Below, piece by piece: positions 10,031 through 63,622 of a stretch of DNA of 64,000 nucleotides. This DNA is from Myxococcota bacterium (GTDB lineage Bacteria; Myxococcota_A; UBA796; CAJQPC01): positions 64,001 through 128,000 of the forward strand of contig DASCPX010000009.1 of NCBI GenBank assembly GCA_036012755.1. The letters run 5' to 3'. The translations under genes and the position numbers were made by a program. The notes below the pieces were generated by a model. That model saw only the letters and a program-made list of their open reading frames with translations, was not told the DNA's origin and did no database searches. The stretch's first letter is position 1. Every line of letters begins with the position of its first letter.

Positions 10031-11860
10031 CTAAAACGCCGTGGGCAAGACGACGAGTCGACCGTCGGCTGGTGAACCGACGACGAGGTCCAAAGAGCCG
10101 TCCCCGTCGACATCTCCGATGGCCGCGCTCGCCCCGAACTCGGCCCCACCGAGGACCGTGGCCTCGGCGTCCACGGGGAGCGTGGTGGAGCGCGAAGCCA
10201 GGCCTTCGCCCAGGAAGACGTAGACCTCCTGGCCGTCCGGGTCGCCCACGACGAGATCACCCCGCCCGTTGGCGTCGAGATCGCCGGTCCCGACGATGTC
10301 CCAGTCCCGGGCGCTGGACCGGTCGAGCTCGATGCGGTCGTCGATCAGGGTCGCGGGCTTGCTGAAGAAGGTCCCGTCGGTCGGCACGAGGTGGACGCGC
10401 GTGGTGCCGGAGTCCTGGCTGACCACAGCGAGGTCGTCGCTGCCGTCCCCGTCGTAGTCGCTCACCACGGTCAGCTGCTGGCCGAAGCGCCAGTTGCTCT
10501 TGTCGCCCTTCACGCTGCTGATGTCGTCGACATCGACCACGGAGGATGCGCCGAAGGTCGAGCCGTCGAGCACGTAGATGGCACCCCCGTCGGGCTTGGA
10601 CACCTGGTCGTCCGGCGCGCCCATGACAAGGTCATCGACCCCGTCACCGTCGACGTCGAGGACCGCGAGCGCGGCGCCGAGCCCGTCCACCCCGCTGTCG
10701 GCGTCGTAGACCTTGACCACGAAGTCCTTTTCCAGGTCCGAGGTACCCGCCAGGTCCGCCTCCAGCATGAAGACGACCCCCTGGTCGCCCTGCCCCGAAG
10801 CCGAGCCGACGGCGACGTACCCGCCGAAGAGTGCGAGGTCGCCGTCCACCGCGAAGGCGGACTCGAAGAGCCCATCGGCTGCGCTGGCAGAGCCGGTCCC
10901 CTCGACGAGGCCGTCGTCGAGCAGCCAGACCGCGCGGTCGCCCGGAGCCGAGACAGCCAGCTCCTGCTTGCCGTCGCCGTCGAGATCGGCGACGAGGAGT
11001 GCAAAGCCGAGCCCCTGGTTCGCGCCGCTGGGCTGGAGCGACAAGCCCGCCTCGTTCAACCCGAGGCTGCCCCCAGGACGCCCGGCGATGTCCGCGCCGT
11101 CCCACCGCGCGAGGTAGCCGCCGCCGCCAAAGACGCCGCCGTAGTCCGGCAGCGTGGCGAAGACCTCTGCTCCGGCGTCGCCGTCGACCTCCGCGACGAC
11201 GAGCTGGCGGCCGAGATCCCCCGTCGTGGTCGCCTTGATCTCGACCGTGTCGGCGATGGCGGTCCAGTCCCCGTCCTCGGTGCTGTCGCAGTCGTTGTCG
11301 ATGCCGTCGACGATCTCGTCGGCGCTGGAGTTGATCGCCCCGTCCTCGTCCTCGCAGTCGAGGTCCTCGACGTCGTCGCAAGGATCGAAGCCCTGGGACT
11401 TGTAGGTGTCGTTCTCGTAGTCGCCGGTTTGGGTCTCGGACTTGGGGATGCCCTCGCCGTCTCCGTCGGCGTCGTAGTCGCAGGCCCGATCGCAGTCCTG
11501 GTCGACGCCGTCGTAGAACTCCTCGGTCCCGTCTGGGTTCACGAGGTGGTCGTCATCGTCGCAGTCGTCGCCGGTCGGGTCCCACCTCTCGCTGCGGAAG
11601 CCGTCCAGATCCTGGTCCATGTCGTTGTCGTCGCAGTCCTGGTCCGTGCCGTCGTACCAGATCTCGTCCCGGCCCGGGTTCACCGCCGCGTTGTCGTCGT
11701 CGCAGTCGACGTCGTCGGTGTAGCCGTCGTGGTCATTGTCCTCGGGCTGCGGTTCATCGCTGTCCGGGATCTCGGTGTCGCTGTCGTCCGTCCCGATGCT
11801 CCCTGTGTCGTAGACCACCACCGGTGACGGGCAGCCCAGGAGCCACAGCATCAGCGTCAT
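10031..11860 (-). CDS. Lipoprotein with MopE-like/putative metal-binding repeats and FG-GAP (integrin alpha-like) repeats
   Basis: LLGC lipobox; repeated DCDD...NPG..E.wYDG.DQDCD units; DLDGDG..EL and DVDGDG.DDLVMGAP repeats; GGAGG RBS. Confidence 0.85.
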   Translation of the reverse strand: MTLMLWLLGCPSPVVVYDTGSIGTDDSDTEIPDSDEPQPEDNDHDGYTDDVDCDDDNAAVNPGRDEIWYDGTDQDCDDNDMDQDLDGFRSERWDPTGDDCDDDDHLVNPDGTEEFYDGVDQDCDRACDYDADGDGEGIPKSETQTGDYENDTYKSQGFDPCDDVEDLDCEDEDGAINSSADEIVDGIDNDCDSTEDGDWTAIADTVEIKATTTGDLGRQLVVAEVDGDAGAEVFATLPDYGGVFGGGGYLARWDGADIAGRPGGSLGLNEAGLSLQPSGANQGLGFALLVADLDGDGKQELAVSAPGDRAVWLLDDGLVEGTGSASAADGLFESAFAVDGDLALFGGYVAVGSASGQGDQGVVFMLEADLAGTSDLEKDFVVKVYDADSGVDGLGAALAVLDVDGDGVDDLVMGAPDDQVSKPDGGAIYVLDGSTFGASSVVDVDDISSVKGDKSNWRFGQQLTVVSDYDGDGSDDLAVVSQDSGTTRVHLVPTDGTFFSKPATLIDDRIELDRSSARDWDIVGTGDLDANGRGDLVVGDPDGQEVYVFLGEGLASRSTTLPVDAEATVLGGAEFGASAAIGDVDGDGSLDLVVGSPADGRLVVLPTAF

Positions 11861-11921: not shown

Positions 11922-12560
11922 ATGATTCGAGATCGACTCAAGGGTGCCCTGCGCAAGGTGGCGCTGAAGGCCTTCGGCATGGAGCGCGAGGCATCCGACC
12001 GGACCACGGAGAAGACCAGGGGCTCGACGGAGTACGACCCCTCGAAGATCCCCAAGATCGTCAGCGGTAGCGGAGACATGCCCCTGGCCACCGATCAGGA
12101 GCTCATCGGCAGCACCTACCTCGCAGCGCAGCTGATCGGCGGCGTGCCCGGGACCATCATCGACACCCGGCCACCCGAGGAGTGGATGGCCGGCCACATC
12201 CCGGGAGCGCTCCTTCTCCCGGGGGACCAGATCCGGGGCCGGCCCGAGCTGTTGCCGGGGCCCTCCGACCGCATCAGCGTCTACGACGCCACGGGCGAGC
12301 AAGGCGCCTTCGGCGTTGCGGAGAAGCTGCGTGAGCAGGGCTTCCGGGTCTGCCGGTCCCTTCAGTCGGGCTGGGCCGGCTGGATCGAGCACGGCGAGCC
12401 CGTCGAGAAGCCGGAGGCCCGGGCCGGACACAACCTGGGTGACTCGGTCGAGACCAACGACGGGCGCCGAGGGGTCATCCAGGGATTCGGGCAAGGCACC
12501 GTCGATCTGCTCTGCGAGGACGGACCGGCGTTGGGAGTGGCCGAGGCCGAGCTGAAGTGA
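11922..12560 (+). CDS. Rhodanese-like domain protein (active-site Cys replaced by Asp)
   Basis: IDTRPPEEWMAGHIPGA and LQSGWAGW motifs; YDATG at the active-site loop. Start is 11922 (GAGGA just upstream) or 11901. Confidence 0.8.
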   Translation: MIRDRLKGALRKVALKAFGMEREASDRTTEKTRGSTEYDPSKIPKIVSGSGDMPLATDQELIGSTYLAAQLIGGVPGTIIDTRPPEEWMAGHIPGALLLPGDQIRGRPELLPGPSDRISVYDATGEQGAFGVAEKLREQGFRVCRSLQSGWAGWIEHGEPVEKPEARAGHNLGDSVETNDGRRGVIQGFGQGTVDLLCEDGPALGVAEAELK

Positions 12561-13117
12561 TCCTCCTGGCCTCTGCCTGCTCCACGACCCAAGCGGGCCC
12601 GATCCTCTTCGCGGCAGCGTCCACCCGCGTGGCGGTCGAGGAGGCGCTGTCGGACTGGGAGGGCCCGCCGGTCAGGGCGTCCTACGCCGCCAGCTCGATG
12701 CTGGGACGGCAGATCGAGGCCGGCGCTCCGGCGGACGTCTTCCTCAGCGCGCACCCGGAGTGGCTCGAGGGCGAGGTCTTCCTGCGCAACGAGATGGTGC
12801 TCGTAGGGACCATCACCGACTGCGTCATCGTCGCGGACGAGCATGTTCCGGCTGGAACGTACGCGCGCCAGGGGCTCGGAGAGCAGAGCTACGTCTCGGC
12901 CGCCGACGCCTCCGCGGTCGTGGTGATGTACGAACAGGCCCACTGCAGCGCCGCGGCCATCTACCGCACCGATCTCCAGGAGCCCTGGGAGGTGACCAGG
13001 GTCCTCGCCACCGAGCCCATCGAGTACCCGATGGCGGCGCTGACACCGGAGGGTGAGCGGCTCGAGGCTCACCTCCGGGCCCGACACGAGGTCTTCGTGG
13101 AGCACGGCTTCCGCTGA
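12557..13117 (+). CDS. modA: Compact ModA-like molybdate-binding lipoprotein
   Basis: FAAAS, SYAASSMLGRQIEAGAPADVFLSA, VPAGTYA, IYRTD, IEYP, HGF terminus. Confidence 0.75.
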   Translation: MILLASACSTTQAGPILFAAASTRVAVEEALSDWEGPPVRASYAASSMLGRQIEAGAPADVFLSAHPEWLEGEVFLRNEMVLVGTITDCVIVADEHVPAGTYARQGLGEQSYVSAADASAVVVMYEQAHCSAAAIYRTDLQEPWEVTRVLATEPIEYPMAALTPEGERLEAHLRARHEVFVEHGFR

Positions 13118-20602: not shown

Positions 20603-20620
20603 TGGGTGTTAGGGGACGGG

Positions 20621-22723
20621 GTGCTTCTCCTGGCAGGCTGCATCGCGGACGGACCGACCTTCGGCATCTCCCGGGCGGGCGAGGACCCGCGGACCCTGGT
20701 CTTCAACAACGCCACCGAGCCCGAGTTCATCGATCCGACCCAGGCCACGGGCCACCCGGACGGACGCATCGCGCAGGAGATCTTCGACGGGCTCACCGAG
20801 TACGGGCCCATCGATCTGTCCCCCCAGCCAAGCCACGCGTTGTCCTGGGACACCCACCCCGATGGGCGGGGCTACACCTTCCACCTGCGCGACGACGCCG
20901 TCTGGTCCGACGGGACGCCGGTCACCGCCCGGGACTACGCCTGGTCCTGGGAGCACGTCCTCAACCCGGCCTACCTCTCCCGCTACGCCCAGCAGCTGTA
21001 CTTCGTGGAGCGCGCGCCGCTCTACAACAGCTCCCGGGTCTTCATCGGCGACGACGGCGCTGTCCTCGAGGCCACCGGGAGCAACGTCGTCGCCCTCACA
21101 GACGACCTCGACGAGCTCGACGACGGCAGCGTCCACGTCGTGGCCGCCCGGACCGACACGGAGCTCGAGCTCGTCTACCGCGCTGGCTGCCCGGATCTCG
21201 CGGACCTGCTGGCTCTGTTCGACTGCAGCGGCCCCGAGCTCCGAAAGACCGTCTCCTTGGAGCTCACAGAGGCCGCCTGGCCGATGCCGAACCAACGGGT
21301 GCTCACCGAAGACGTCGTGCTCCACACCCCGGGCGGCGAGGTCCCCCTGTCCCGGGGCGAGGAGGTCGTGCTCATCGGCGGCGGCAAGGTCTTCTACCCG
21401 ACCTCGGAGAAGACCGGCACGCTGGATGCCTCCAAGCTCGCCGATCCCCGAGCCGAGCACATCCGCTACGACCTCGTGGAGCTCGAGCCGATCGACTGGT
21501 CCGGCGAGGGCCGAGGGGACACGGGCGCGCCGAGCGAGCTGCCACCTCTCACGAGGACAGCCAGCCTGTCGGAGCTCCGCGTCTCGGCCGAGGTGCTCGG
21601 CTTCCGCGTCGAGGACGACCACACCTTCACCGTCAGGCTCTCGGGAGTAGCCCCCTTCTTCCTGACCCTGACGAGCCACACGACCTTGAGGGCCGCCCCG
21701 CGACAGGCCTGGGAGGAGCACGGCTCGCGCTGGACGAGGCCAGGGAACATCGTGAGCAGCGGGCCCTTCCTCCTGGAGACCCACATCGTGCGCGACCGCT
21801 TCGAGCTCGTCGCGAACCCGGACTGGTACGACGCCGAGAACCTGGCCTTCGATCGGGTCATCGCCTACTCGATCGACAACCTCCACACGAGCGCGAACCT
21901 CTATCGGGCCGGCTACACGGACTTCGTCGTCGCCAACGACATCCCCGCCGAGTTCATCCCGATGCTGAAGGACAAGGAGGACTTCACCGTCAGCCCGGCG
22001 CTGTCGGTCTACGTCTACCGGATCAACACGACGAAGCCCCCCTTCGACGACGCGCGCGTCCGACGGGCCCTGGCGATGGCGGTCAACCGAGAGGACGTGG
22101 TCAAGGTCTTGAAGGCGGGCCAGCTCCCGGCGGACCACATCGTGCCCCCCGGGCTCCCCGGCTATGACCCCGCCCGCGGGCCGGGCTTCGACCCGGAGGC
22201 CGCCCGCGCCCTGCTCGCAGAGGCTGGCTACCCGGGCGGCGAGGGCTTCCCGGAGACCAGGATCCTCTACAACACGCTGGAGACCCACAAGCTGGTCGCG
22301 GCCATCGTGCAAGACAACTGGGCCAAGGAGCTCGGCATCGACGTCCAGCTCGAGAACAGGGAGTGGAAGACCTACCTCAAGACGGTCAACAACCTCGACT
22401 ACGACGTCGCCCGCGGGGGCTGGATCGGCGACTACCTCGATCCGCTGACCTTCCTCGAGCTCTGGATCCAAGACGGCGGGAACAACAACACCGGTTGGAC
22501 CGACCCGCGCTACGACGCCCTCATCCACGAGGCATCGCAGACCTCGGACCCCGCGGATCGTCTGGCGGTCCTCGCGGAAGCAGAGAAGCTCTTGAACGAG
22601 GAGATGCCCTTCATCCCCATCTACCACTACGTCTGGACGGACCTGACGCAGCCGGACGTCAAGGGCACGCACCCGAACCTGCTGGACCAGCACGCCATTC
22701 GCTACATGCACATCGAGCGCTGA
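20621..22723 (+). CDS. oppA: Oligopeptide ABC transporter substrate-binding lipoprotein with a large insertion
   Basis: LAGC lipobox, EPEFIDP, YTFHLRDDAVWSDG.PVTA.D, PPFDDARVRRAL, GWIGDYLDP. Start is GTG 20621 or 20606. Confidence 0.9.
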   Translation: MLLLAGCIADGPTFGISRAGEDPRTLVFNNATEPEFIDPTQATGHPDGRIAQEIFDGLTEYGPIDLSPQPSHALSWDTHPDGRGYTFHLRDDAVWSDGTPVTARDYAWSWEHVLNPAYLSRYAQQLYFVERAPLYNSSRVFIGDDGAVLEATGSNVVALTDDLDELDDGSVHVVAARTDTELELVYRAGCPDLADLLALFDCSGPELRKTVSLELTEAAWPMPNQRVLTEDVVLHTPGGEVPLSRGEEVVLIGGGKVFYPTSEKTGTLDASKLADPRAEHIRYDLVELEPIDWSGEGRGDTGAPSELPPLTRTASLSELRVSAEVLGFRVEDDHTFTVRLSGVAPFFLTLTSHTTLRAAPRQAWEEHGSRWTRPGNIVSSGPFLLETHIVRDRFELVANPDWYDAENLAFDRVIAYSIDNLHTSANLYRAGYTDFVVANDIPAEFIPMLKDKEDFTVSPALSVYVYRINTTKPPFDDARVRRALAMAVNREDVVKVLKAGQLPADHIVPPGLPGYDPARGPGFDPEAARALLAEAGYPGGEGFPETRILYNTLETHKLVAAIVQDNWAKELGIDVQLENREWKTYLKTVNNLDYDVARGGWIGDYLDPLTFLELWIQDGGNNNTGWTDPRYDALIHEASQTSDPADRLAVLAEAEKLLNEEMPFIPIYHYVWTDLTQPDVKGTHPNLLDQHAIRYMHIER

Positions 22724-28727: not shown

Positions 28728-29285
28728 TCAGAGGCGGTAGTCGACCGCCTTCTCGAAGAGCGCCGTGTCGTCCTTGCTGACCTTGACCTCGACGTTGCCG
28801 TCGGTCGAGGCGACGGGCGCCTGGAGCTTGAGGAAGGCGACGGTCGGGCCGTTCATCGCGAGGCTGGAGGCGGTGACCATCTGGCGGGTCTCGCCGACCT
28901 TGTTGCCATCGACGAAGACCTCGCCCACGAGCCAGTAGGCACCCTCGAAGTCTGCGGGGCTGCGTCCCACGAGGACGGGGAGCTCGACGACGACGCTGTC
29001 GCGGTCGACGTGGACGACGCTGGCGTCGTAGTTGCCGGAGAGCGGGACCTGGCCAGCGCTTCCGTAGGGAAGGGTCTGGGCCACCGGGATCGACACGATG
29101 CGGAAGTCGGCGAAGTCGTCGTCCTCCTCGCTGTCGAACAGGTCGAAGTCGTCTGCGCTCGGCGCGCTGTCCGCGGCGAGCAACTCGGCGTTGCGATCGC
29201 CCTCGACGAGGAAGTCGAACTCGTCGTCTGTGCTCGCGAGAGCGTCCTGGGCGAAGGCGGGGGCGATGAGGAGTGCAACGAACAT
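28728..29285 (-). CDS. Exported acidic hypothetical protein
   Basis: Signal-like MFVALLIAPAFA-QD, DDEFDF-type acidic repeats, GC3-rich codons. Confidence 0.7.
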   Translation of the reverse strand: MFVALLIAPAFAQDALASTDDEFDFLVEGDRNAELLAADSAPSADDFDLFDSEEDDDFADFRIVSIPVAQTLPYGSAGQVPLSGNYDASVVHVDRDSVVVELPVLVGRSPADFEGAYWLVGEVFVDGNKVGETRQMVTASSLAMNGPTVAFLKLQAPVASTDGNVEVKVSKDDTALFEKAVDYRL

Positions 29286-31495: not shown

Positions 31496-31504
31496 GCGCT
31501 GGTC

Positions 31505-43505: not shown

Positions 43506-44654
43506 ATGCTCTGGGTCTCCCTCGCCATCGCTGCGCCGCTCTTGGTCGATCCGGACGTGAACCGGGACGAGGCGGCGGCATCCGTCCAGTCCGCCGCCGG
43601 GATCGAGGATCTCCAGGTGATGGGGCTGGAGGAGCTCCTCGGGGCCCGCCCGCCGCTGCTCTCCGGTGACGGGCAGGTCGATCTCTGCACCCGCGCCCCC
43701 TCCTCCGCCGGCCAGGTCTCGGAGCAGCTCGGCAAGGCCGAGGACAGCGTGTCCTACATGGACTACGAGGCGGCGCTCTCGGAGCTCGACGAGGTGGACG
43801 GCCTGCTCGCCTGCCTGCGGGACCCCGTGAGCCCCGCCGACGCCGCCCGGGCCTACTTCCTCCGCGGCATCGTGGCCTTCGACTCCGGGGACGAGGGCAA
43901 GGCGCTGCAGAGCTTCGTCCAGGCGCGCCAGTTCGACCCGGAGATCGCCTGGGACACAGCCTTCCCCCCTCGGGCCCAGGGCGTCTTCGACCAGGCGACG
44001 ACGATCTCGGCGGAGCAGGCTCCCGCCTCGCTGCTCCTCGTCCCGGCTCCCCCCGACATCCGAGTCGACGGGAGGCTCGCGTCCACCACCGGGAGCCAGC
44101 TCACCCTCGGCCCCGGCCGCCACCTCGTCCAGCTCGGGCCCGAGCCGATGACGACCTTCCAGGTGGAGCTCCAGGCCGGCTCCGAGGCCACCCTGGTCGT
44201 GCCAGCCATGGTCGACGAGCACGCACTGCGCGAGATCGCGACCGACGATCGCGTCGCCCTCAGCGCCGCGCTCGGGGCTCTGCTCGGCGAAGGCCAGCTC
44301 GTCTTCGTGGCCGTCCCCGGGGGCATCTGGAAGGGCAGCGCCGGCGGGCGCGCATGGGAACAGATCGTGGCCACGGAGCCCGTCGCGATCGCCGAGATCA
44401 TCGAGGTCCCGGCTCCCGAGCTGGAGCCAGGGGACAAGGGGGTGCGAAGGGGCCTGCTCGGGGTCGCCATAGGCACCGCGGCGGTCAGCGGGGCGCTGTA
44501 CGGCGGGGCCGCGCTCACGAACCAGGCCTTCTACGCCAGCGACACTCCGACCGGCCAGCTGGAGCAGGTCCAACAGCTCAACAACGGGCTCATCGTGGCC
44601 TCGGCTGGCCTCGGGGCCGTCGCCGTGGGCCTTGGCGTCGTGGCGGTCTTCTGA
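43506..44654 (+). CDS. Exported/membrane hypothetical protein (helical TPR-like plus PEGA-like region, C-terminal TMs)
   Basis: Signal-like MLWVSLAIA, IRVDGR...LGPGRHLVQ, glycine-rich C-terminal helices. Confidence 0.65.
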   Translation: MLWVSLAIAAPLLVDPDVNRDEAAASVQSAAGIEDLQVMGLEELLGARPPLLSGDGQVDLCTRAPSSAGQVSEQLGKAEDSVSYMDYEAALSELDEVDGLLACLRDPVSPADAARAYFLRGIVAFDSGDEGKALQSFVQARQFDPEIAWDTAFPPRAQGVFDQATTISAEQAPASLLLVPAPPDIRVDGRLASTTGSQLTLGPGRHLVQLGPEPMTTFQVELQAGSEATLVVPAMVDEHALREIATDDRVALSAALGALLGEGQLVFVAVPGGIWKGSAGGRAWEQIVATEPVAIAEIIEVPAPELEPGDKGVRRGLLGVAIGTAAVSGALYGGAALTNQAFYASDTPTGQLEQVQQLNNGLIVASAGLGAVAVGLGVVAVF

Positions 44655-45919
44655 TGTTCCTGCTGACCAGCTGTCTCTGGATCTCGGACGAGGACCTCGC
44701 CCGTGAGCTGAAGCGGCGAGAGCGCCCGGGAGAGACCCCGGAACCCACCGTGATCCTGGAGCTCTCCGGCACCGGGAGCTACGGCGCCGCGCTGGCGGCC
44801 TACGACGAGGACGGCGACGGAGTCCGCGAGCTGGCCATCGGCCTCCCGGACGCGGTGGATGGTGACGTCGACGTGCTCAGGTTCGGGGCGGAGGGCCCGG
44901 ACGTGACCGCGCTGGTCTTCCAGTCCATGAGCGAGACCAACGATGGACCTTGCGAGGCAGGCGGAGTCCTCGCCAACGCCGGTGACCTCGACGGAGACGG
45001 CGACGAAGAGCTCATGATCGGCATGCCTGGCTGCACGGTGGGAGGCGCCGACGGCGGCTGGGCCTTCTGGAAGGGCGGCAAGAACAACCCCAAGGGCGAG
45101 TTCTTCTTCTCCGGGAGCTTCGACCCCGGCACGGACATCGCGCGCTCGCGTGACCACGACGACAACGGCTACGACGACGTCATGATCGGCGCACCTGGCT
45201 ACGCGGAGTCGACCGGCGCGGTCTTCCTGAAGCGCTACGAAGAAGAGCCAGGTGACATCGTCATCTACGTCGGCGAGAACGTCGGCGACCGCTTCGGCGG
45301 GGCGGTGACCGGACCCGGCGACACCAACGGCGACGGAGCCTCGGACGTCGTCATCGCCTCACCCGAGGCCGGCGGCGGGGCAGGAGCCGCCTACCTGATC
45401 GTCGGGCCGCAGCCAGCCACCAGCGTCGCCACGCCGGTGGAGGCTTCCACCCCCCGGACGAACGGAGCCAGCGGCAGCGGGCTGGGCTCCGAGCTCGGCA
45501 GCGGCGGGGACGTCAACGACGACGGCCTGGACGACTGGCTCATACAGGTCCCGGGCCTGGACGAGGTGCTCGTCGTGCTCGGCTCCTCGAACGATGACGC
45601 CGCGGTCGACCTGATCATCCACGGCGAGCCTGGGATCGGCGCCGCCCTGGAGATCTCGGACCTGGACGCCGACGGCTCAGCCGAGCTCCTCGTCGGCTCA
45701 CCCTTCGGAGAGGGCGCGGTCTATGTCTTCGAGGCCCCCCTGAGCGCCTCGATGGAGCTCACGGACGCCACGACGACGATCATCGGAGCCGTGGACGGAG
45801 GTGAGTTCGGGGCCTCGCTGGCGGTCTTCGCCGATCTCGACGGTGACGGCATCGGGGAGGTGGCAATCGGCGCGCCGACGGAGCAGACTGTCGAGCTGTT
45901 CACCGGACTCACCTACTGA
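44654..45919 (+). CDS. FG-GAP (integrin alpha-like) repeat lipoprotein
   Basis: LTSC lipobox; repeated GDLDGDG/GDVNDDG...IGAP units; TGATG coupling at both ends. Confidence 0.85.
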   Translation: MFLLTSCLWISDEDLARELKRRERPGETPEPTVILELSGTGSYGAALAAYDEDGDGVRELAIGLPDAVDGDVDVLRFGAEGPDVTALVFQSMSETNDGPCEAGGVLANAGDLDGDGDEELMIGMPGCTVGGADGGWAFWKGGKNNPKGEFFFSGSFDPGTDIARSRDHDDNGYDDVMIGAPGYAESTGAVFLKRYEEEPGDIVIYVGENVGDRFGGAVTGPGDTNGDGASDVVIASPEAGGGAGAAYLIVGPQPATSVATPVEASTPRTNGASGSGLGSELGSGGDVNDDGLDDWLIQVPGLDEVLVVLGSSNDDAAVDLIIHGEPGIGAALEISDLDADGSAELLVGSPFGEGAVYVFEAPLSASMELTDATTTIIGAVDGGEFGASLAVFADLDGDGIGEVAIGAPTEQTVELFTGLTY

Positions 45920-47474: not shown

Positions 47475-48659
47475 ATGCTGCTGTCGCTCGCGCTGTCGTG
47501 TACGTCCCCGGAGCCCACGCCGCCCCTCGAGCAGGAGGAGTCCGCCAGCGAGGGCCACTGGACGAAGCTCGACACCCTCGCCTTCGGGCACGCGGACCAC
47601 ACGGCGACGATGCTGCCGGGGCAGCAGATCATCGTGCTCGGTGGCTTCTCGGACAAGGTCGAGCGCGTCGACGTCCCAGCCCGTCGGATCCGCGCGGCGA
47701 GTCCCCTCCCCCAGGCGCGCATGAACCACGCCGCCGCGGCGCTGCCAGACGGGCGGCTGATCGTCGCCGGCGGCGAGGTCTACGACCGCGACACCCGCGA
47801 GCGCACGGCGACCAACACCGTCTTGATCTGGGACCCCGAGACCGACACCTGGTCCGACGGACCGGCGCTCTCGACGGTGCGAGTCGACTTCACGCTCAGC
47901 CCCTATGGCGACGGCGTGATCGCCATCGGCGGCAAGGACGGCGAGGGTGCCGTGCTCGGCCGAACAGAGGTCCTGGCAGCTGGCGCCTGGCTGGAGGGCC
48001 CGGCTGTGTCCCCGCGTCACGGCCACGACGTGGACGCGTGGCGAGGTGGACTCGTCATCACCGGTGGACGCGACGGCGACCCGGTGGGCCTCGTCGAGCA
48101 CATCGTCGAGGGCCGCACGAAGCTGCTCGCCACGCTGTCGCCACCTCGCGCGGACCAGGTGACGCTGGTGCTGGACGACGACAGCCTCATGGTCATCGGC
48201 GGAGACGACGGCACCGACGTGCTCGCTGACGTCGACCAGCTCGTCGACGGTCAGTGGGTGGCGCTCACCCCCTTGTCCCATCCCCGCTCCCAGCACGGCG
48301 CGGGCCAGGTGGCCGATGGCCGCGTCGTGGTCTTCGGAGGCCGTCCGGTGGTGGCCTCCCCCGACGCCCTGCCGATCCGCGACGTCGAGATCTACGAGGC
48401 CGACGGCGCCTGGCGAGAGGCCAACCGCCAGGTCCAGGCCCGCTACGAGGGCGTGACGCTGCCGCTGGAGGACGGGAGGGTCCTCGTCGCCGGTGGGAAC
48501 TCCCGGGGCAAGGTCATCCTCGAGGTCTCGGTCTACTCTCCGGAGCCCAAGCCGCCGCGGGTCAAGCAGCCAGAGGACACAGCGCCTCCGGAGCCCGCGG
48601 AGCCCTCGGAGCCCTCGGAGCGACCCCCTGCTCCTCCCGGACTGCCCCCGGGGATCTGA
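47475..48659 (+). CDS. Kelch-repeat lipoprotein
   Basis: R..H.A..L.DGR..V.GG repeats; LSC lipobox. Confidence 0.88.
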   Translation: MLLSLALSCTSPEPTPPLEQEESASEGHWTKLDTLAFGHADHTATMLPGQQIIVLGGFSDKVERVDVPARRIRAASPLPQARMNHAAAALPDGRLIVAGGEVYDRDTRERTATNTVLIWDPETDTWSDGPALSTVRVDFTLSPYGDGVIAIGGKDGEGAVLGRTEVLAAGAWLEGPAVSPRHGHDVDAWRGGLVITGGRDGDPVGLVEHIVEGRTKLLATLSPPRADQVTLVLDDDSLMVIGGDDGTDVLADVDQLVDGQWVALTPLSHPRSQHGAGQVADGRVVVFGGRPVVASPDALPIRDVEIYEADGAWREANRQVQARYEGVTLPLEDGRVLVAGGNSRGKVILEVSVYSPEPKPPRVKQPEDTAPPEPAEPSEPSERPPAPPGLPPGI

Positions 48660-50052: not shown

Positions 50053-50547
50053 ATGCGAAGCCTCATTCTCTTCTCCGGCCTCATGGCCACCACTACCGGC
50101 TGCATCGTCTACGACTACGACGAAGACTGCGATCCGGACATCCCCTGCCACGACGGGAGCTGGGACGACCTCGATGACTCCGGTCTGACCGACGACGTCG
50201 AGGAGGAGATCCCGGTCGAGCTCTCCTTCACCCCGGACCACGCCGAGCAGGGCGAGGTCTTCTCCGCGGTCATCCGCGTGACCGACGGCGAGATGGACCT
50301 CTCGAGCGTCAGCGAGATCACGATCTACGGCGACGCCATCCTCCACTCGGCGGTCGCCCGGCCCGACAGCATCACGGCCATCTTCGAGCTCTCAGCCGAC
50401 GGCGAGCTCGGCCCGGTCGACATCGTGCTCGAGACAGCCGCCGGAGACGGTGAGCTCATCCCAGGCGCCTTCACGGTCTTCGAGGCCGGCAGCGGGAACT
50501 CCGCGAACGACTGGAACGACGGCTCGGCCGAGGACGACTGCGAGTGA
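50053..50547 (+). CDS. Acidic lipoprotein with a probable Ig-like fold
   Basis: MRSLILFSGLMATTTGC; FTPDHAEQGE...GAFTV; AGGAG upstream. Confidence 0.7.
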   Translation: MRSLILFSGLMATTTGCIVYDYDEDCDPDIPCHDGSWDDLDDSGLTDDVEEEIPVELSFTPDHAEQGEVFSAVIRVTDGEMDLSSVSEITIYGDAILHSAVARPDSITAIFELSADGELGPVDIVLETAAGDGELIPGAFTVFEAGSGNSANDWNDGSAEDDCE

Positions 50548-50651: not shown

Positions 50652-51143
50652 ATGGACGTCGAGGTCCTGTATCGACGCTACGGGGACATGGTCCTCGGTC
50701 GCTGCAGGACGCTGCTGCGCAACGACGCGGAGGCCCAGGACGCCTGCCAGGAGGTCTTCCTCAAGGTCCACCGCTACCGCCACAGCTTCCGAAACGAAGC
50801 CAAGCCCAGCACCTACCTCTTCCGGGTCACCACGACGGTCTGCCTCAACCGGATCCGGTCCCGGGGCCGGCGCAAGGAAGACCTCGTCGATGAGCCGGCG
50901 CCGGTGGCGGTCGTGGACTCCCACCTCTGTGGCGTCGATTCGCGGCAGCTCGTGGACCTCCTCCTCGAGGAAGCCGACGAGCGCACAGCCGCCTGCATCG
51001 TCCACCACTACGTCGACGGCATGACCCACGCCGAGATCGGCACGATGCTCGGCCTCTCCGGCGCTGCGATCCGCAAGCGCATCTCCACCTTCAAGAAGCG
51101 ATTCGCCGCGAATCCCCCCAACTGGATCGGCGAGCTCGAGTAG
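50652..51143 (+). CDS. ECF RNA polymerase sigma factor
   Basis: LYRRYG, AQDACQEVF, TYLFRVTT..CLN, GMTHAEIG.MLGLS. Confidence 0.92.
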   Translation: MDVEVLYRRYGDMVLGRCRTLLRNDAEAQDACQEVFLKVHRYRHSFRNEAKPSTYLFRVTTTVCLNRIRSRGRRKEDLVDEPAPVAVVDSHLCGVDSRQLVDLLLEEADERTAACIVHHYVDGMTHAEIGTMLGLSGAAIRKRISTFKKRFAANPPNWIGELE

Positions 51144-51147
51144 CGAA

Positions 51148-51849
51148 ATGGAACACCTGTCCACACTCTCACTGCACCAGCTCCGCTACGGCGAGCTCGA
51201 CGACACACAAGAGCGCGAGGCCCGCGCTCACCTCGCTGAGTGCGAGCACTGCGCCAGCCTGCTCGCCGCCCAGCAGAACCACCGCGAGGCCTTCGTGCTC
51301 TCGCCCGTCCCGCCTGCCCTGCGCGAGCTCGAGCCCGCCACGCCCTGGTGGCGTCGGCTGTTCGCCGGCCAGTGGACCGGCCCCCTCGCGGCGGTCGCTG
51401 CGCTGATGCTCATCGTGCCCATCGCGCTGTTGGTCCCTGGCGAAGAGGACCCGATCACCGAGGAGCCCGAGATCTCGGAAAAGGGCGGCATCCACCTGGA
51501 GGCCTGGCTCGAGACGAACGAGGGCCCGGCGATCCTCGACGAGAACGCCTTGCTGCGTGCCGGGGATCGCGTGCAGCTCAAGTTCGCAAGCCAGGGCCGT
51601 CCCTTCGCCAGCTTCGGCGGCCTCGACGAGGCAGGCAACACAGAGGTCTACGGCACCGTCAGCACCACCGGCGAAGGCATCGAGACCGCACCCTTCGCGC
51701 TCACCTTGGACGACGCTCCGGGAAGACAACGCTTCTTTGCGCTGTTCACGTGGGAGCGCCCGAGCGAGGACACCGTCCGTCAGTCCATTTCCAGCGGGCA
51801 GGCACCAGAGGGTGGCATCCTGAGATCGATCTCCTTTCGGAAGGACTGA
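51148..51849 (+). CDS. Zinc-binding anti-sigma factor (zf-HC2, TM, ActD/DUF4384-like extracytoplasmic domain)
   Basis: AHLAECEHC (HxxxCxxC), one TM, LRAGDRVQL...LTLDDAPG..RFFALF. Confidence 0.85.
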   Translation: MEHLSTLSLHQLRYGELDDTQEREARAHLAECEHCASLLAAQQNHREAFVLSPVPPALRELEPATPWWRRLFAGQWTGPLAAVAALMLIVPIALLVPGEEDPITEEPEISEKGGIHLEAWLETNEGPAILDENALLRAGDRVQLKFASQGRPFASFGGLDEAGNTEVYGTVSTTGEGIETAPFALTLDDAPGRQRFFALFTWERPSEDTVRQSISSGQAPEGGILRSISFRKD

Positions 51850-53633
51850 TGGTCCAACTGCTGGTTCTGGCGACCGCGCTGAGTTCCGAGGCCGAGGCCG
51901 AGGTGGGCCGTCGCGCTCTGCTCGTCGGCGCCAATGACGGTGGCATCGACCTGCCGGCGCTGCGCTACACGCAGAACGACGTCGCTCGCATGGAGGACGT
52001 GCTCGTCGAGCTCGGCGGCTTCGAGCCAGAGGACATCGTGGTCCTCCAGGGTCCGGACGGGGCGACGCTGGCGGTCGAGCTGCAGCGCATGCAGTACGAC
52101 TCGGTGGCCGGAGAGGACATCTTCCTCTTCTACTACTCGGGCCACGCCGACGCCCGAGGCCTGCGGCTCGGCGACGACGTCTACCCCTTCGAGGAGCTCC
52201 GCGAGGACTTCGCCCGCACCGACGCCGACGTGAAGCTCGGCATCCTCGATGCCTGCCGCAGCGGCCAGATCACCCAGGCCAAGGGCGCTGTGGTCGTCGA
52301 CCCCTTTCTGGCCGACAGCCTCGATGCCCAGGGCGTGGCCTGGATCACCGCCTCCAGCGGCGACGAGCTCGCCCAGGAGTCCCGCTCCCTGCGAGGCTCC
52401 TTCTTCACCCACCACCTCGTCTCCGGCATGCGCGGCGCGGCGGACAACGGTGACGGCGTCGTCTCCCTGAGCGAGGCCTACAGCTACGCCTATGCACAGA
52501 CCGTCGAGCGCACCTCGGCCGCCGGCGCCACCCAGCACCCCGAGTACGACTTCCAGATCGCAGGAAAAGGCGACCTGGCGCTCACCACGCTGTCGAAGGC
52601 CACCTCTCACGTGACCCTGTCGGCCGGCTACGGCGGCGAGATCGCGATCCTGCGGGACGGACTGCTGGTGGCCGAGGTCGACAAGCCGGTCGACCAGGAG
52701 ATGACGCTCGCGCTGCAGCCCGGCACCTACACCCTGCGACGTCGCGAGGGAGAGAAGATCTACGAGGTCCGCCTCGGTGTCGAGGAGGGTGCGCATCGCA
52801 CGGTCGGCACACGCTGGGGCGAGAGCGCCACAGAGGTCGCCAGCTGGAAGGGCACCGTGCCACGCCCCGGGGACCTCGACACCCAGAAGATCGTCGAGAG
52901 CACCGTCGACGCCGCCCGGGACTTCGAGTTCCGCCACAACCCCTACGTGGCGATGAGCTTCTCGACCCTCGTCCCGGGCGCCGGCCAGATGTACAACCGC
53001 CAGTACGGCAAGGGCCTGCTCTACCTCGGCAGCACCTACGTGCTGGTCGGGACCGGCTTCGCCTTCAACACGGTCGGAGACGAGGGCCCGGCCTTCAAGG
53101 GAAGCGTCATCGGCCCGACCCCTGCCAACGCCGCCGGATTCGCGCTCTGGGGCATGGCGATGAGCCAGGCCTACTACCAGCAGAAGTACGGCGACGACAA
53201 GCCGGAGCGAAAGGCCGAGGGCGTCCACGTGAGCCTCGAGACCGCCTGGACGGATGACTGGGACGCCCCACACACTGCGGGCATCGCGGTCGACTGGGTC
53301 ATCACGCCCGGAGTCAGCATCGGGCTGGACCGGACGGGCTGGACCAAGGCGCCCGATTCAGAGGACACCGGCGTCTTCAACATCGGCGGCCGCATCATGG
53401 TCGCCCCCGAGTGGCAGCGCTTCCGGCCCGGTGTCTTCGGCGCGACCAACCTGCGCATCGGACGCCACCTCGACACCCAGCGGACCATCCGTCCCGTGCT
53501 CGGGGCAGGCGTACAGTTCCGCTGGTTCGTCACCCCCCGCTACTACCTCACCTTCGAGAGCCGCGGCGAGTACGACGACGGCGAGCTCTACTGGGTCAAC
53601 GGCGGCGGCCTCGGCGTGCAGCTGGGCGGCTGA
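51849..53633 (+). CDS. Exported caspase-family (peptidase C14) protein with PEGA-like, DUF5683-like and beta-barrel-like C-terminal domains
   Basis: ALLVGAN, YYSGHAD, LDACRSG, SFFTHHLVSGMRGAAD; LVPGAGQMYN; amphipathic beta-strand tail. Confidence 0.9.
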   Translation: MVQLLVLATALSSEAEAEVGRRALLVGANDGGIDLPALRYTQNDVARMEDVLVELGGFEPEDIVVLQGPDGATLAVELQRMQYDSVAGEDIFLFYYSGHADARGLRLGDDVYPFEELREDFARTDADVKLGILDACRSGQITQAKGAVVVDPFLADSLDAQGVAWITASSGDELAQESRSLRGSFFTHHLVSGMRGAADNGDGVVSLSEAYSYAYAQTVERTSAAGATQHPEYDFQIAGKGDLALTTLSKATSHVTLSAGYGGEIAILRDGLLVAEVDKPVDQEMTLALQPGTYTLRRREGEKIYEVRLGVEEGAHRTVGTRWGESATEVASWKGTVPRPGDLDTQKIVESTVDAARDFEFRHNPYVAMSFSTLVPGAGQMYNRQYGKGLLYLGSTYVLVGTGFAFNTVGDEGPAFKGSVIGPTPANAAGFALWGMAMSQAYYQQKYGDDKPERKAEGVHVSLETAWTDDWDAPHTAGIAVDWVITPGVSIGLDRTGWTKAPDSEDTGVFNIGGRIMVAPEWQRFRPGVFGATNLRIGRHLDTQRTIRPVLGAGVQFRWFVTPRYYLTFESRGEYDDGELYWVNGGGLGVQLGG

Positions 53634-59772: not shown

Positions 59773-60504
59773 GTGTTCATTCTCTTGATCTCCCTGCTCA
59801 GCGGGTGCACAAAGGACTGCATCGAGGGCTACGCCATGGGCGCGGACGGGAACTGCTACCCGGTCGGCGACAGCGGTGACAGCAACGTCGAGGGCGACGC
59901 CGACACCGACGCCGACACCGACGCTGACACCGACGCGGACTCCGACGCGGACAGCGACGCAGACTCCGATGCGGACAGCGACGCAGACTCCGATGCGGAC
60001 AGCGACGCAGACTCCGATGCGGACAGCGACGCGGACTCCGACGCGGACTCCGACGCGGACTCCGACGCAGACTCCGACGCAGACACCGACGCAGACTCAG
60101 ACGCAGACGCAGACGCAGACGCCGACGGCGACACGGATCGCGACTGCAGCGCCTCCGGCGGAGGCATCTGCGGAGAGGTCACCGGAACGCATCCTGGCGT
60201 TGCCTGGGGCGTCGAGGTGAGAGAGAACGCCTCGGACACCATCCCCTTCGCCATGTACGCGCCCCCGACTGGAGCGACGGGATCCTGGCCAGAGGACTAC
60301 TCGGTCGTCGATGGTGACGTGCTCGGAAAGAAGGGCAGCGGCGGGACCTTCGACACCGCCAACTACTACGTCTATGTCATCGCCGACACGGACGGAGACG
60401 GCTACCTCGACGCCAACGCCGGTGACGACTACGCCGCATACAGCGGCAACCCGGTGTCGGTCACCTCTGGCTCGCTCACGACGGTGAACCTCACCTATCC
60501 CTGA
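59773..60504 (+). CDS. Lipoprotein with a long (Asp-X)n repeat
   Basis: GGAGGAG RBS and GTG; LSGC lipobox; DADT/DADS tract; TATACT -10-like box upstream. Confidence 0.85.
59896..60138 (+). repeat. 12-bp-unit coding microsatellite encoding DADS/DADT
   Basis: About 81 codons alternating Asp with Ala/Ser/Thr. Confidence 0.95.
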
Positions 60505-60977
60505 TGCTCGGGAGCCCCCGGGTTCCCCAGCCGCCTGCGCGCCGCCTCTTCCAGGGCGGCGCGTATTTGATCAGGCCCGGCGTTGCTGTTGAGGTAGCCC
60601 AGGGGCGCGAAGCGCTGCTCGAGGTTCTTCCAGCGGCGGGGCTCGTGGTCGAAGTCGTAGCTGAAGACGACGGGGATGACATGTCCCGCGGCCCGAACAG
60701 CCGCCAACACGTAGGCGCCCTGGTTGTCTTCGAGGAAGCGGGTAGCGCGCTCGCGGTCACCGTTGCACCGGTCTTCGGCGGCGGCCATGTCGCCGATCAG
60801 CCGTGACGCCGGCACGCGGTCGAAGCGCATGTCGAGGAAGACGACGTCGTAGTGCTCGGCGGCGAGCCGGTCGAGGGCTTCGTGGCCGTCCCCGGCCCGC
60901 ACGAGCGTGAAGCCAGCCAGGAAGCGGGACAGGGTGCTGCTGTACTCCTCGCCGTCCTCGACGATCAGGACCCTCAT
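60495..60977 (-). CDS. Stand-alone response regulator with a loop insertion
   Basis: [21 protein letters not shown] overlap with the upstream kinase. Confidence 0.82.
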
Positions 60978-63622
60978 CTCCCCTCCAGGTGGATCTCCGC
61001 GCGAGGCAGGCGTACGACGATGGCTTTCTGCCAGCCCTCTTGGGCCTCGACCTTGATGGAGCCTTCCTGACGCGTCACGAGATCGACGGTGAGACCTAGG
61101 CCGCGGGCGATGTAGCGACCACGGATCATCTCGTCCGTGAGCGGTGAGACCGCGTTGTCGAGGAAGCGCAGCACCACCCACTCCAAGCCGGTCACGAAGT
61201 CGGCTTCCGTATCGAGCGAGAGCCCGATGCGCCGCTGCCCGGGTTCCCTCTCATCGAGGACGGCGTTGAGGCCGTTGCGCAGGATGTTCACCACGATGTC
61301 CTCCAACTCGCCCCTGAAGATGCGGACCGGCAGGGCCTCTTCCGGAGCCCGGAGCTCGAGCTCGGGGAGACGGCGCCCGGCGAAGGCCGGCTCGCGGGTG
61401 AGGTGTAGCCAGCAGTCCCGCAGGACCTCGCCATCGACCGGCAGCACGCACACCTCCGCGAGGATGCGGCCGAGCTCGATGTAGCCGGTGTGGTTGAGCG
61501 CGTGGCTGATCCGGAGGAGCTCATCGACGTCGTCCTCGGCGTCGGCGAGATCTGCGAAAGCGGCGCACATCGGGGCGATGACAGGGTCGAGGCGACGCAG
61601 GTTCAAGCGCATGGCGTGGCGCCTTCCGATCCTCTCCAGCTCGCGCACGTAGCCGTTCCATCGCTCGAGGATCCCGCCCCGGACGAGCCGCGCGACCGCC
61701 TCTGCGGCGGGCACCGGATCGCCCCGCTGAAGGGCCGCGGCGGCGGCGGGCAGCACCGTCGTGTTGTGCTTGAGCACCTCGTGTCGCATGGCGCTCAGCA
61801 CGGTCGCGACATCGTGGTAGCTCTCGGGGGCCACCTCCAGGAGCTCCTGGAGCGTCGCGCCCGTGCGGCGACGCCAGAACAACACCGCCGGGACCGCGAT
61901 CAGCGCCAGCCCGGCAGCACCCGCCCCACCGAAGGTCAGGCGGAAGCGCGTCTCCAGCTCGTCGCGGAGCAAGACGGCGGCTTCGTGGCGCCGACCGCCG
62001 GTGGCTCGCGCGAAGTACTCGGACAGGAGCTTGCGGGCCTCGAGCCAGTCACCCTCCTCGTCCGCCAGGGCAGCCAGGGCGTACCAGGCTTCTTCGGCCC
62101 CCAGCTGTGCGGCCTCGTGGAAGGCATCGGCTGCCTCGCCTCTGTGGCCGGCGTCCTGGTGGAGGTAGCCGATCGCCAACACCGTCAGCGGCTGAACGGG
62201 CCGGACCTCGAGGCTGCGCTCGTAGGTCTGCAGAGCGCCGGCGCTGTCCGCCGCGCGCAGCTGCAGGTGGGCGAGCAGGTTGAGGGCGTCGACGTACTCG
62301 GGTGACTCCTCCAGGGCGAGCTGGACCTCGATCAGGGCCTTGTCGTCGTCCTGCTGGCGCTCCAGGTAGACCTTGGCGAGCTTGAAGTGGAGCCAGGCGG
62401 ACTCGGCGATGCCGTCCGGGGGCCTGGCGAGCAGGGCCTCGACCTCTGGCGGGTCCGGGCGCGTGCGGACGAGGTCCGCGATGGCAAGCCTGGCCTGCTC
62501 CGCGAACTCGCCCTCCGGCGCACGGTCCACGTAGCGCTCGTACGCGTCCACCGCGCCGGGGAAGTCACCGGCCTGTTGGCGGATGGTGCCAAGGAGGTAG
62601 AGCAGCTCTACCCAGGCCGGACGCAGGGTCTGGGCGCGCTCGAGCTCGTCCGCGGCTTCGCGGTGACGGCGTCCGCCATAGCGACGCGCCAGCAACAGCC
62701 CGAAGCTGACCCTCCATGTGGCCTCGTCCGGCTCCAGCGCGATGGCGGTCAGGTAGGCCTGCTCGGCTCCCGCGATGTCGCCGAGCTCCAGGGCGACGTC
62801 CCCCGAAGCACCCCAGACCTCCGGGGATCTCGGCGCCAGCTCCAGGAGCACGTCGAGCCGAGCTCGGGCACGCTCCAAGCGCCCCTGCGCGATCTGGAGG
62901 CGCGCCTCCTCGAGCTCCTTCCGCTGCTGCGGGTCGAGGGCCTCTGCGCCGCCGATGGCGAGCACGGCGGCGGCTGCCTCGACGTCGAGGCGCTCCAGAC
63001 GGGCGCGGACCTCTTCCGCCAGCGCCCCCTCCGGCCAGAGCTCCAGGTAGGACTCGAGCCAGGCCCGCGCCTCCTCCCGCTGGTCGGCGGCCTTCAGCGC
63101 CTCGGCGAGCGCGATGAGGTGGAGTCCAGTCGCGGTCGGATCCTCCTCTGGGCCGCCCAGCTCGAGGTAGGTCTCGAAGGTCGCGACAGAGCCGGCGAGA
63201 TCTCCGGACAGCAGCGAGGCCTCGGACTCCAGCCGCCAGGGCTCGGCGTCGCCGAGGCGCAGCTTGCGCAGCCGGCGGTAGAGCTCGACCGCCTCCTCCG
63301 GGTGCTCCTCGCGGATCAGTCGGGCCAGCGCCTGGACGGCGTCGGCGTCCATCGGCATCTGTCGCAGGACCCGCACCGCGTCGTCGAGCTCGCCCTGCTG
63401 CTCGTGGCAGCGAGCGAGGCCGACCCCCGCCTGGGAGTACGCCGGGTCCCGCTCCAGCACGAGCTCGTAGGCAGCCGCAGCCCGGCTCCACTGTCCACCC
63501 CGCTCGTGCTGGAGCGCCGCCCGGTACAGCTGCTGCCCGATGGGATCGAGGCCGGCGCCGTCGAGGTCGCCACCAGCGGGGGGCTCCTGCGCGAACGCCA
63601 GCGCCAGCAACAGGGCGATCAA
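60974..63622 (-). CDS. TPR-repeat membrane sensor histidine kinase
   Basis: Signal peptide, about 550 aa of TPR-like helices, TM, H-box MRHEVLKH, N-box NILRNG, FLDNA, RGLGL. Confidence 0.78.
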   Translation of the reverse strand: MIALLLALAFAQEPPAGGDLDGAGLDPIGQQLYRAALQHERGGQWSRAAAAYELVLERDPAYSQAGVGLARCHEQQGELDDAVRVLRQMPMDADAVQALARLIREEHPEEAVELYRRLRKLRLGDAEPWRLESEASLLSGDLAGSVATFETYLELGGPEEDPTATGLHLIALAEALKAADQREEARAWLESYLELWPEGALAEEVRARLERLDVEAAAAVLAIGGAEALDPQQRKELEEARLQIAQGRLERARARLDVLLELAPRSPEVWGASGDVALELGDIAGAEQAYLTAIALEPDEATWRVSFGLLLARRYGGRRHREAADELERAQTLRPAWVELLYLLGTIRQQAGDFPGAVDAYERYVDRAPEGEFAEQARLAIADLVRTRPDPPEVEALLARPPDGIAESAWLHFKLAKVYLERQQDDDKALIEVQLALEESPEYVDALNLLAHLQLRAADSAGALQTYERSLEVRPVQPLTVLAIGYLHQDAGHRGEAADAFHEAAQLGAEEAWYALAALADEEGDWLEARKLLSEYFARATGGRRHEAAVLLRDELETRFRLTFGGAGAAGLALIAVPAVLFWRRRTGATLQELLEVAPESYHDVATVLSAMRHEVLKHNTTVLPAAAAALQRGDPVPAAEAVARLVRGGILERWNGYVRELERIGRRHAMRLNLRRLDPVIAPMCAAFADLADAEDDVDELLRISHALNHTGYIELGRILAEVCVLPVDGEVLRDCWLHLTREPAFAGRRLPELELRAPEEALPVRIFRGELEDIVVNILRNGLNAVLDEREPGQRRIGLSLDTEADFVTGLEWVVLRFLDNAVSPLTDEMIRGRYIARGLGLTVDLVTRQEGSIKVEAQEGWQKAIVVRLPRAEIHLEGR

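Follow-up and report, generated by a model that had tools for sequence, protein, structure and literature searches.

The window considered here is a 64,000-nucleotide stretch (G000:C9:64001-128000) of the draft genome of a Myxococcota bacterium, the assembly under study (G000; 6.73 Mb in 250 contigs, 68% G+C, 96% complete). It carries a series of genes whose products begin with a very short hydrophobic segment that has no lysine or arginine (K/R) and that ends either in a lipobox cysteine or in a sequence resembling a signal peptidase I (SPase I) site. Such starts, of only about 7-12 residues, are found on most of the predicted exported proteins of the genome and, in graded form, across the order to which the organism belongs, and they are probably Sec-type export signals that have lost the basic n-region.

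All eight short lipoprotein starts that an earlier note had named are present in the window (11860-, 12557+, 20621/20606+, 31505+, 34916-, 44654+, 47475+ and 59773+), and each falls in the 'short_only' class of an independent pipeline. The five starts that the note had likened to SPase I signals also exist (29285-, 35688+, 43506+, 51849+ and 63622-). Four of these are well placed, whereas the one at 43506 (MLWVSLAIA) is ambiguous: an alternative ATG at 43422 would add 28 residues, including an Arg. The two genes set apart as canonical, at 34953 and 50053, do have canonical leaders.

Several of the starts are closely bounded. In-frame stop codons (TAG, TGA, TAA, TAG and TAG) lie 11, 1, 3, 3 and 3 codons upstream of the starts at 11860-, 20606+, 31505+, 34916- and 47475+, respectively. 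Reassignment of a single stop codon was considered and rejected, the five bounding stops comprising three TAG, one TAA and one TGA. The solute-binding lipoprotein of the SBP_bac_5 family has two possible starts, GTG at 20606 (MLGDGVLLLAGC) or GTG at 20621 (MLLLAGC). For the starts at 12557, 44654, 51849, 59773 and 63622 the upstream frame is open, and coding potential begins within one codon of the start; as had been claimed, those at 12557, 44654, 51849 and 63622 overlap the stop of the upstream gene. The starts at 31505 and 34916 are covered by contigs of other metagenome runs (X5, X6 and X7), with no indels listed. The genes concerned are collected in Table 1.

Table 1. Genes of the window with short or canonical N-terminal signals. 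Positions are those of the window.
Positions	Strand	Product and N-terminus	Basis
10031..11860	-	FG-GAP / Cu-binding_MopE lipoprotein, MTLMLWLLGC, Cys at residue 10	Pfam; stop 11 codons upstream, no start between; GGAGGA ribosome-binding motif
12557..13117	+	SBP_bac_11-like solute-binding lipoprotein, MILLASAC, GTG start overlapping upstream stop	Pfam; coding onset exactly 12557
20606..22723	+	SBP_bac_5 (OppA-type) solute-binding lipoprotein, ATP-binding cassette (ABC) importer operon	Pfam E=3.6e-86; stop 1 codon upstream
28728..29285	-	Acidic 185-aa protein, SPase I-like start MFVALLIAPAFA then QD	Coding onset at its ATG; no Pfam family matched
31505..32725	+	FKBP-domain lipoprotein, MTMMMLALLAC	Pfam FKBP_C, 3 stretches; stop 3 codons upstream
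33861..34916	-	351-aa lipoprotein, MGSMVTMLSAC	No Pfam family matched; stop 3 codons upstream
34953..35276	+	Small lipoprotein, canonical leader MKRFVFISLALGATVAC, contrast case	
35688..38495	+	Invasin_D3 / Big_1 surface protein, SPase I-like start MLQLLFLGSALA then AEAE	Pfam; first start of open reading frame
43506..44654	+	Gene with SPase I-like start MLWVSLAIA, start ambiguous (ATG 43422 open)	Third-position G+C (GC3) 0.92, coding
44654..45919	+	FG-GAP lipoprotein, MFLLTSC, 1-nt stop/start overlap TGATG	Pfam; coding onset
47475..48659	+	Kelch-repeat lipoprotein, MLLSLALSC	Pfam Kelch families; stop 3 codons upstream
50053..50547	+	Small lipoprotein, canonical leader MRSLILFSGLMATTTGC, contrast case	
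51849..53633	+	Peptidase_C14 (caspase-domain) protein, SPase I-like start MVQLLVLATALS, ATG overlaps upstream stop	Pfam; coding onset
59773..60504	+	243-aa lipoprotein, GTG start, N-terminus of 12 letters not shown	No Pfam family matched; AAGGAGGAG ribosome-binding site upstream; coding onset 59770
60974..63622	-	TPR-repeat protein, MIALLLALAFA then QEPP, TTG start overlapping upstream stop	Pfam; coding onset

The gene with the ambiguous start overlaps the 5' end of a divergent gene encoding 923 aa (40757-43528, minus strand), by 22 nt if it begins at 43506 or by 106 nt if it begins at 43422. It was missed by our gene caller, a long spurious minus-strand open reading frame (ORF) overlapping it. 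The Peptidase_C14 gene is the last of three plus-strand genes (50646-53633) that overlapping stop and start codons tie closely together. The first encodes a sigma-factor-like N-terminus (50646-51143), the second a protein containing Cys and His (51148-51849), and the third the presumably exported Peptidase_C14 protein, which also has a DUF5683-like stretch (51849-53633).

Because spurious ORFs abound at 68% G+C, genes were called with a codon-likelihood caller written for this genome and trained on its long ORFs of high GC3. The caller returned 5830 genes covering 91% of the genome, and it also estimates the point in each ORF at which coding potential begins (the coding onset). Both the caller and the lipobox pattern used to search its output are heuristic. 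A hydrophobic run followed by a lipobox Cys ([LVI..][ASTVI..][GAS]C) occurs near the start of 731 of the 5830 genes, compared with 40 of 3565 in an internal control window of 70 residues, and the motif near the start is thus far above chance.

A large fraction of these lipobox genes has no room for an ordinary leader. Among the 720 with an upstream stop on the contig, the farthest ATG, GTG or TTG still leaves fewer than 12 residues before the Cys in 311. The Cys lies within 14 codons of an in-frame stop in 122 lipobox genes and within 10 codons in 64; in those 122 a normal leader is therefore impossible from any start codon. No K/R-containing leader can be formed from any ATG, GTG or TTG start in 431 of the 731, and in a further 133 the short start is the one closer to the coding onset, which brings the short class to 564 genes (77%). 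The remaining genes comprise 146 that look canonical and 21 that fall in neither class (12 'other' and 9 without a candidate start). The genome-wide survey of Cys position that the earlier note had called for finds residue 8 to be the commonest in the short class (192 genes), with the others at residue 6 (4), 7 (61), 9 (126), 10 (73), 11 (49) and 12-14 (59). The consensus of this class is M-[LI]-L-L-L-L-[AGS]-C.

Ribosome-binding motifs support the short starts. Of 311 short starts, 137 (44%) have a Shine-Dalgarno-like motif 4-18 nt upstream, compared with 479 of 1048 unambiguous reference starts of non-lipoprotein genes (46%) and 1018 of 5415 internal in-frame start-like codons (19%). The motif has its peak at a similar position in the profiles of short and reference starts, which also resemble each other in their choice of start codon. 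In 2455 genes the start is fixed by an upstream stop together with the coding onset, and 353 of these genes have a lipobox. The signal is K/R-free with the core within four residues of the Met in 269 of them, has K/R before the core in 73, and is K/R-free with a later core in 11.

Lipobox composition is alike in the short and canonical classes, with Leu at -3 in 391 of the 564 short signals; Ala, Gly or Ser at -1 is set by construction of the pattern. The core is where the classes differ. Over positions -6 to -2 the mean Kyte-Doolittle hydrophobicity is 3.07 in the short class, 2.54 in the canonical class of the same genome and 2.45 in the outgroup, and the number of Leu residues per five core residues is 2.8, 2.0 and 1.65, respectively (Mann-Whitney p=6e-12 and 5e-9). 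The second residue of the short signals is mostly Leu, Ile, Thr, Ser or Phe, and methionine aminopeptidase usually leaves the Met in place before such residues. Therefore, the sole possible positive charge would be that of the N-terminal amino group once it has been deformylated. In the short class, the first 20 mature residues carry a mean net charge of -3.1 and are negative in 91% of cases. The stretch of about 20 residues that follows the lipobox Cys is typically an acidic linker rich in Pro, Asp, Glu, Thr and Gly, with means of 4.2 Asp plus Glu and 1.1 Lys plus Arg per 20 residues.

Starts of a similar kind precede proteins that have no lipobox. Outside the lipobox set, 394 of the 2455 start-fixed genes have a hydrophobic segment, K/R-free and no longer than 16 residues, that begins within four residues of the Met; this count includes some cytoplasmic and membrane proteins. 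BamA has such a short, K/R-free start (MIHLLLAFWIALA then Q), as do several TonB-dependent receptors (MLWLSMTLALA then QEPP, MIQLLVALALA then QEPP) and proteins of the OmpA family (MIWMLAGLAQA then QDDD, MLQLLIGLAQA then QSTQ, MTWLVALALA then DPVT). The AxA motif of these starts was seen by eye and is unscored. Ordinary signals are kept by a minority of the proteins that must be exported. The LolA orthologue series was considered as support and set aside as uninformative: its N-termini are hard to place, and several LolA proteins within the order keep K/R (for example that of G002, MIRLFASLL). The BamD (YfiO) homologue (G000:C149:39926-40537, minus strand) seemingly starts with MFALLLTLSLPAVA then AKNQ, with no lipobox Cys, and thus appears to be a substrate of SPase I and not a lipoprotein. 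BamD of E. coli is a lipoprotein.

Signals for twin-arginine translocation (Tat), with an RR motif and long n-regions, occur in 20 of the 2455 start-fixed genes, and TatC is encoded. Since the Tat signals of this genome are long, the loss is specific to Sec-type signals and is no by-product of start calls. The short class has no K/R by definition and hence no twin-arginine motif.

Judged by its GyrA/ParC-like protein, the genome is nearest to metagenome-assembled genomes (MAGs) that carry the labels uncultured proteobacterium (73%), Myxococcota bacterium (72%) and Deltaproteobacteria SAT32/UBA796 (63-64%), with Bradymonadia (56%) and Polyangia (51%) further away. The window itself begins with two plus-strand genes that overlap by 4 nt (59-4296), one like the A subunit (775 aa) and the other like the B subunit (637 aa) of a type II topoisomerase, their function being judged from N-terminal sequences and similarity matches; the first of them served for this placement. 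In several studies the same DNA turned up in metagenomes of marine, seawater and hydrothermal-vent origin. Of the runs listed as containing positions 28500-36000 of the window, none was of RNA.

Orthologues of the SBP_bac_5 lipoprotein from seven relatives align at the Cys, and their leaders range from 6 to 16 residues before it, with or without Arg. Those from the same genus are MILLLGC and MTLLLTLSC, those from other genera of the family are MLLLLALAC, MLTTLSLHALLLSC, MLTSTLSLYTALFLSC and MTPRAAPLLIAALAAGC, and that from another family is MRILTPALVLVLASC. Counts for the individual genomes are given in Table 2. Outside the genus but within the order, 29 of 108 lipobox genes are strictly short (14 genomes), and in the outgroups 0 of 57 (7 genomes, three of the same class and four of the same phylum). 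Of the start-fixed N-terminal hydrophobic segments, those that begin early and are free of K/R make up 36 of 100 where other genera of the family were sampled and 26 of 94 where the sample came from other families. The outgroups have 2 of 67, and both look like cytoplasmic enzymes. Many of the leaders that count as canonical within the order are themselves minimal, the core coming straight after MR- or MK-. The trait clearly belongs to the order, is graded, and is most extreme in this genus.

Table 2. Strictly short lipoproteins over all lipobox genes found, by the same pipeline.
Group	Genome	Count	Remark
Congener (g1)	G002	9/12	12/12 by coding onset
Other genera of family	G003	5/8	
Other genera of family	G012	3/7	
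Other genera of family	G004	2/8	
Other genera of family	G013	2/10	
Other genera of family	G009	3/14	
Other genera of family	G007	4/6	
Other genera of family	G018	4/7	
Other families of order	G019	0/3	
Other families of order	G020	0/9	
Other families of order	G026	0/4	
Other families of order	G021	3/10	
Other families of order	G028	1/6	
Other families of order	G024	2/7	
Other family of order	G030	0/9	Four short by coding onset; two or three without K/R, e.g. MSLLLLLAC, MLLLSLLAC

The predicted signals resemble Sec/SPase II and Sec/SPase I peptides but fail two textbook features, the basic n-region and the length. With canonical signals for signal peptidase II (SPase II), such as that of E. coli Lpp, they share a hydrophobic core and a lipobox with an invariant Cys, in a genome that encodes Lgt and LspA and on the usual exported families. 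In contrast to canonical signals, they have no K/R n-region, the Cys is at residue 7-11 (mode 8), and the core is Leu-richer and only about 4-7 residues long. The PROSITE rule PS51257 expects the lipobox Cys at roughly residue 15-35. The SPase I-type starts share with the canonical tripartite n-h-c signal (Freudl 2018, PMC5875014) a hydrophobic core and a small-x-small sequence before an acidic mature start, as in BamA, whereas the n-region is missing and the total length is about 10-14 residues. A basic n-region is given as a general feature of signal peptides in PMC9360617 and PMC5875014, and for SignalP 6.0 the two-residue n-region is described as a minimum, not an average (PMC9287161). Tat signals, which combine a twin-arginine motif with a long n-region, are unlike the short class.

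Partial precedents come from E. coli mutants. Where n-region charge was lacking, export was possible without positive charge but was slower (PMC5875014, citing Inouye 1982), and in prlA (SecY) suppressor strains mutations in the pore ring or plug allow defective signals to pass (PMC3518225, PMC2171872). The order likewise has a changed pore-ring residue. However, the state seen here is natural, genome-wide and apparently the norm, and the changed residue, I187, lies outside the prlA positions listed in PMC2171872.

We put a probability of roughly 65% on the reading that the short starts are genuine Sec-type signals, of both the SPase II and the SPase I kind, reduced to the Met, a Leu-rich core of about 4-8 residues and a motif for cleavage, either L-[LAS]-[AGS]-C or AxA. 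The K/R n-region would have been lost as a trait of the lineage, widely but partially across one order of uncultured marine Myxococcota-type bacteria and nearly completely in the genus. The proteins are predicted from these motifs to be exported, cleaved and, where a lipobox is present, lipidated. The Leu-richer and more hydrophobic core is consistent with the known trade-off of n-region charge against the hydrophobicity of the h-region, and Freudl (2018, PMC5875014) describes zero or negative n-region charge as lowering the rate of transport without abolishing export, with the h-region's length and its hydrophobic density being critical.

In such a mechanism the short, highly hydrophobic core would dock in the lateral gate of SecY, and its orientation would be set by the N-terminal amino group and the strongly acidic early mature region instead of by basic residues. 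The acidic mature start may favour the N-in/C-out orientation as well as translocation assisted by the proton-motive force. The lipobox would then pass through Lgt, LspA and the later steps in the usual way. A change in the pore ring of SecY that is specific to the clade, from I187 to Ala or Ser, may have loosened proofreading and so permitted the erosion of the n-region.

Several observations weigh against loss of the n-region from functional Sec signals, or limit the counts on which it is based. The mature region of the canonical class is nearly as acidic as that of the short class (-2.6), so that acidity does not separate the two; an acidic mature start is a background property of the genome. 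The persistence of 146 canonical lipoproteins indicates that the n-region is not dispensable for every substrate, and the LolA leader of this genome, whose start is ambiguous, may retain K/R. To our knowledge, a core of 4-6 residues plus a lipobox is shorter than any signal shown to work, and so short a segment would still have to reach the active sites of LspA and Lgt. The lipobox pattern misses atypical lipoboxes (34953 and 50053) and admits some false positives (the 40 of 3565 in the control window). The samples taken from relatives were small, 80-200 kb each, and related genomes are not independent.

The earlier note had concluded that this lineage has a modified Sec/Lgt/Lsp recognition system. 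One component does carry a change found across the order. SecY of the genome under study was aligned to full-length E. coli SecY (5abb_A) for native numbering, and it keeps five of the six pore-ring isoleucines (I82, I86, I191, I278 and I408), with Ala in place of I187. In an alignment of 54 SecY proteins, the 28 genomes of the order have Ala (19) or Ser (9) at this column without exception, and the 26 outgroup genomes all have Ile. Our scan for clade-specific substitutions, which covered SecY, included 141 columns whose conservation in the outgroup is 92% or more; just two of them are replaced order-wide, I187 and T168 (to Ser or Ala). S282, which lies immediately beneath the ring, is replaced by Ala in genera g1-g4 alone, with no clear relation to the strength of the trait. 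The SecY matches of six genomes (G021, G051, G067, G045, G040 and G050) each contain one in-frame stop, TAG or TGA, inside the match.

These substitutions raise the alternative that a modified translocon is a necessary cause. I187 to Ala/Ser, T168 to Ser/Ala and, in one subclade, S282 to Ala would then act as natural prl alleles, and only a channel of this kind would export signals of 7-12 residues that have no n-region. The residue at I187 is distributed like the K/R-free signals, being changed in the clade that holds them. Cannon et al. (2005, PMC2171872) describe I187 as a member of the isoleucine ring and place the prlA positions at G69, I191, I278, S282 and I408. According to Trueman et al. 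(2012, PMC3518225), the majority of prl mutations affect the plug or the pore ring and make signal recognition less faithful, and a 2026 variant screen reports many super-active translocators from diverse pore-ring substitutions (PMC13537251). However, the match between SecY and the trait reflects a single evolutionary event (n=1), and by our estimate the chance that one of two replaced columns hits one of the six ring positions is about 8%. Small residues at this site are also not rare. In 150 representatives of SecY clusters at 50% identity the position is I in 80, V in 25, A in 13, M in 12, T in 8, S in 7, P in 1 and C in 1, with 3 gaps, so that A, S, T or C is found in 29 (about 20%). Runella has Thr there, yet its lipoprotein signals are ordinary and contain K/R (0 of 6 strictly short), and family f3 (G020 and G026) has Ala, yet 0 of its 13 lipobox genes are strictly short.

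I187 is not among the prlA positions given in PMC2171872, and for that position the supplement of PMC13537251, consulted for I187A and I187S, yielded only I187M. S282 is a prlA position in PMC2171872 and is Ala in g1-g4, but it does not follow the strength of the trait, and we found no data on an Ala allele there. A natural prl-like channel is thus an attractive idea of which the I187 change is only weakly suggestive, and the view that it was required for the short signals seems possible but doubtful. The related historical proposal, that the order rewrote Sec targeting when I187 to Ala/Ser (with T168 to Ser/Ala) relaxed proofreading in the ancestor and the n-region then eroded lineage by lineage to signals of seven residues, we regard as rather unlikely. 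If true, it would represent a natural co-evolution of the translocon gate and its signals and would have produced the shortest working tag for export and lipidation. Tolerance by ordinary machinery combined with compensating features of the signals explains the data equally well.

Apart from the I187 change in SecY, the Sec components, SPase I, LspA and Lgt look ordinary. Profile searches of the genome matched one SecY, one SecA, three SPase I, two LspA and five Lgt, in addition to TatC, the LspA and Lgt matches being above the Pfam cut-off. The two lspA genes are in tandem and form a row with two lgt genes (lspA, lspA, lgt, lgt; G000:C59:100000-102591), the other three lgt genes lying elsewhere; the cluster is kept in two congeners and partly in other genera. 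One might suppose from this arrangement that one tandem LspA and some of the five Lgt are dedicated to the ultra-short signals. However, all 31 genomes of the order that were searched have 3-6 copies of lgt, including those with few short signals and those of families in which such signals were not seen. Matches to lspA number 1-2 in 30 of the 31, with none found in G020, and short signals occur even in genera that have just one lspA (for example G018, 4 of 7 strictly short). Since paralogy does not track the trait, the copy number of lgt and lspA is no explanation. Both LspA copies, aligned to solved LspA structures, retain the GNxxDR and FNxAD motifs, which we take to hold the catalytic aspartates. 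Compared with LspA of S. aureus, each also has about 13 additional residues separating the DF motif from FNxAD. Dedicated paralogues are an improbable explanation. Modified machinery for the short signals is possible given the order-wide change in SecY, while the ordinary LspA motifs, the paralogy and the coexistence of canonical Sec and Tat signals do not bear out the claim for recognition as a whole.

It is also conceivable that the segments are not cleaved lipoprotein signals at all, but uncleaved N-terminal membrane anchors or substrates of some other route of modification or targeting. Cleavage and lipidation are indeed predictions here, which leaves room for this view, and the segments would be too short to span a bilayer as a helix. 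However, the lipobox is strongly conserved, as the -3 Leu illustrates, and orthologues with ordinary leaders share the same Cys. In addition, the solute-binding proteins and BamA must lie outside the cytoplasm, and the short class is free of twin-arginine motifs by construction. We judge an anchor or another route to be very improbable. An artefact can be dismissed almost entirely. In that view normal n-regions would be concealed by misplaced start codons, non-canonical starts further upstream, a different genetic code or faulty assembly. A G+C content of 68% does leave many ORFs open far upstream, and 279 of the 731 lipobox genes have an upstream start that would add K/R. However, all three stop codons occur 1-11 codons upstream of five window starts, the Cys of 122 genes is no more than 14 codons from a stop, and the short starts fit both the ribosome-binding motifs and the coding onset. 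Contigs of other runs list no indels, and the same pipeline gives 0 of 57 in the outgroups and finds long Tat signals in this genome.

We found no prior description of this trait in the open-access full text of PMC and bioRxiv. If the short starts are Sec signals without an n-region, their presence on three quarters of the lipoproteins and on the essential BamA would make the minimum working signal much smaller than has been assumed. Predictors built around the textbook form may miss part of the secretome and lipoproteome of these abundant marine bacteria, and the signals could find use as tags of very small size for export or lipidation. Combined with the SecY change specific to the clade, the trait would offer a natural system for the study of translocon proofreading, which has so far been approached mainly through laboratory prl mutants.

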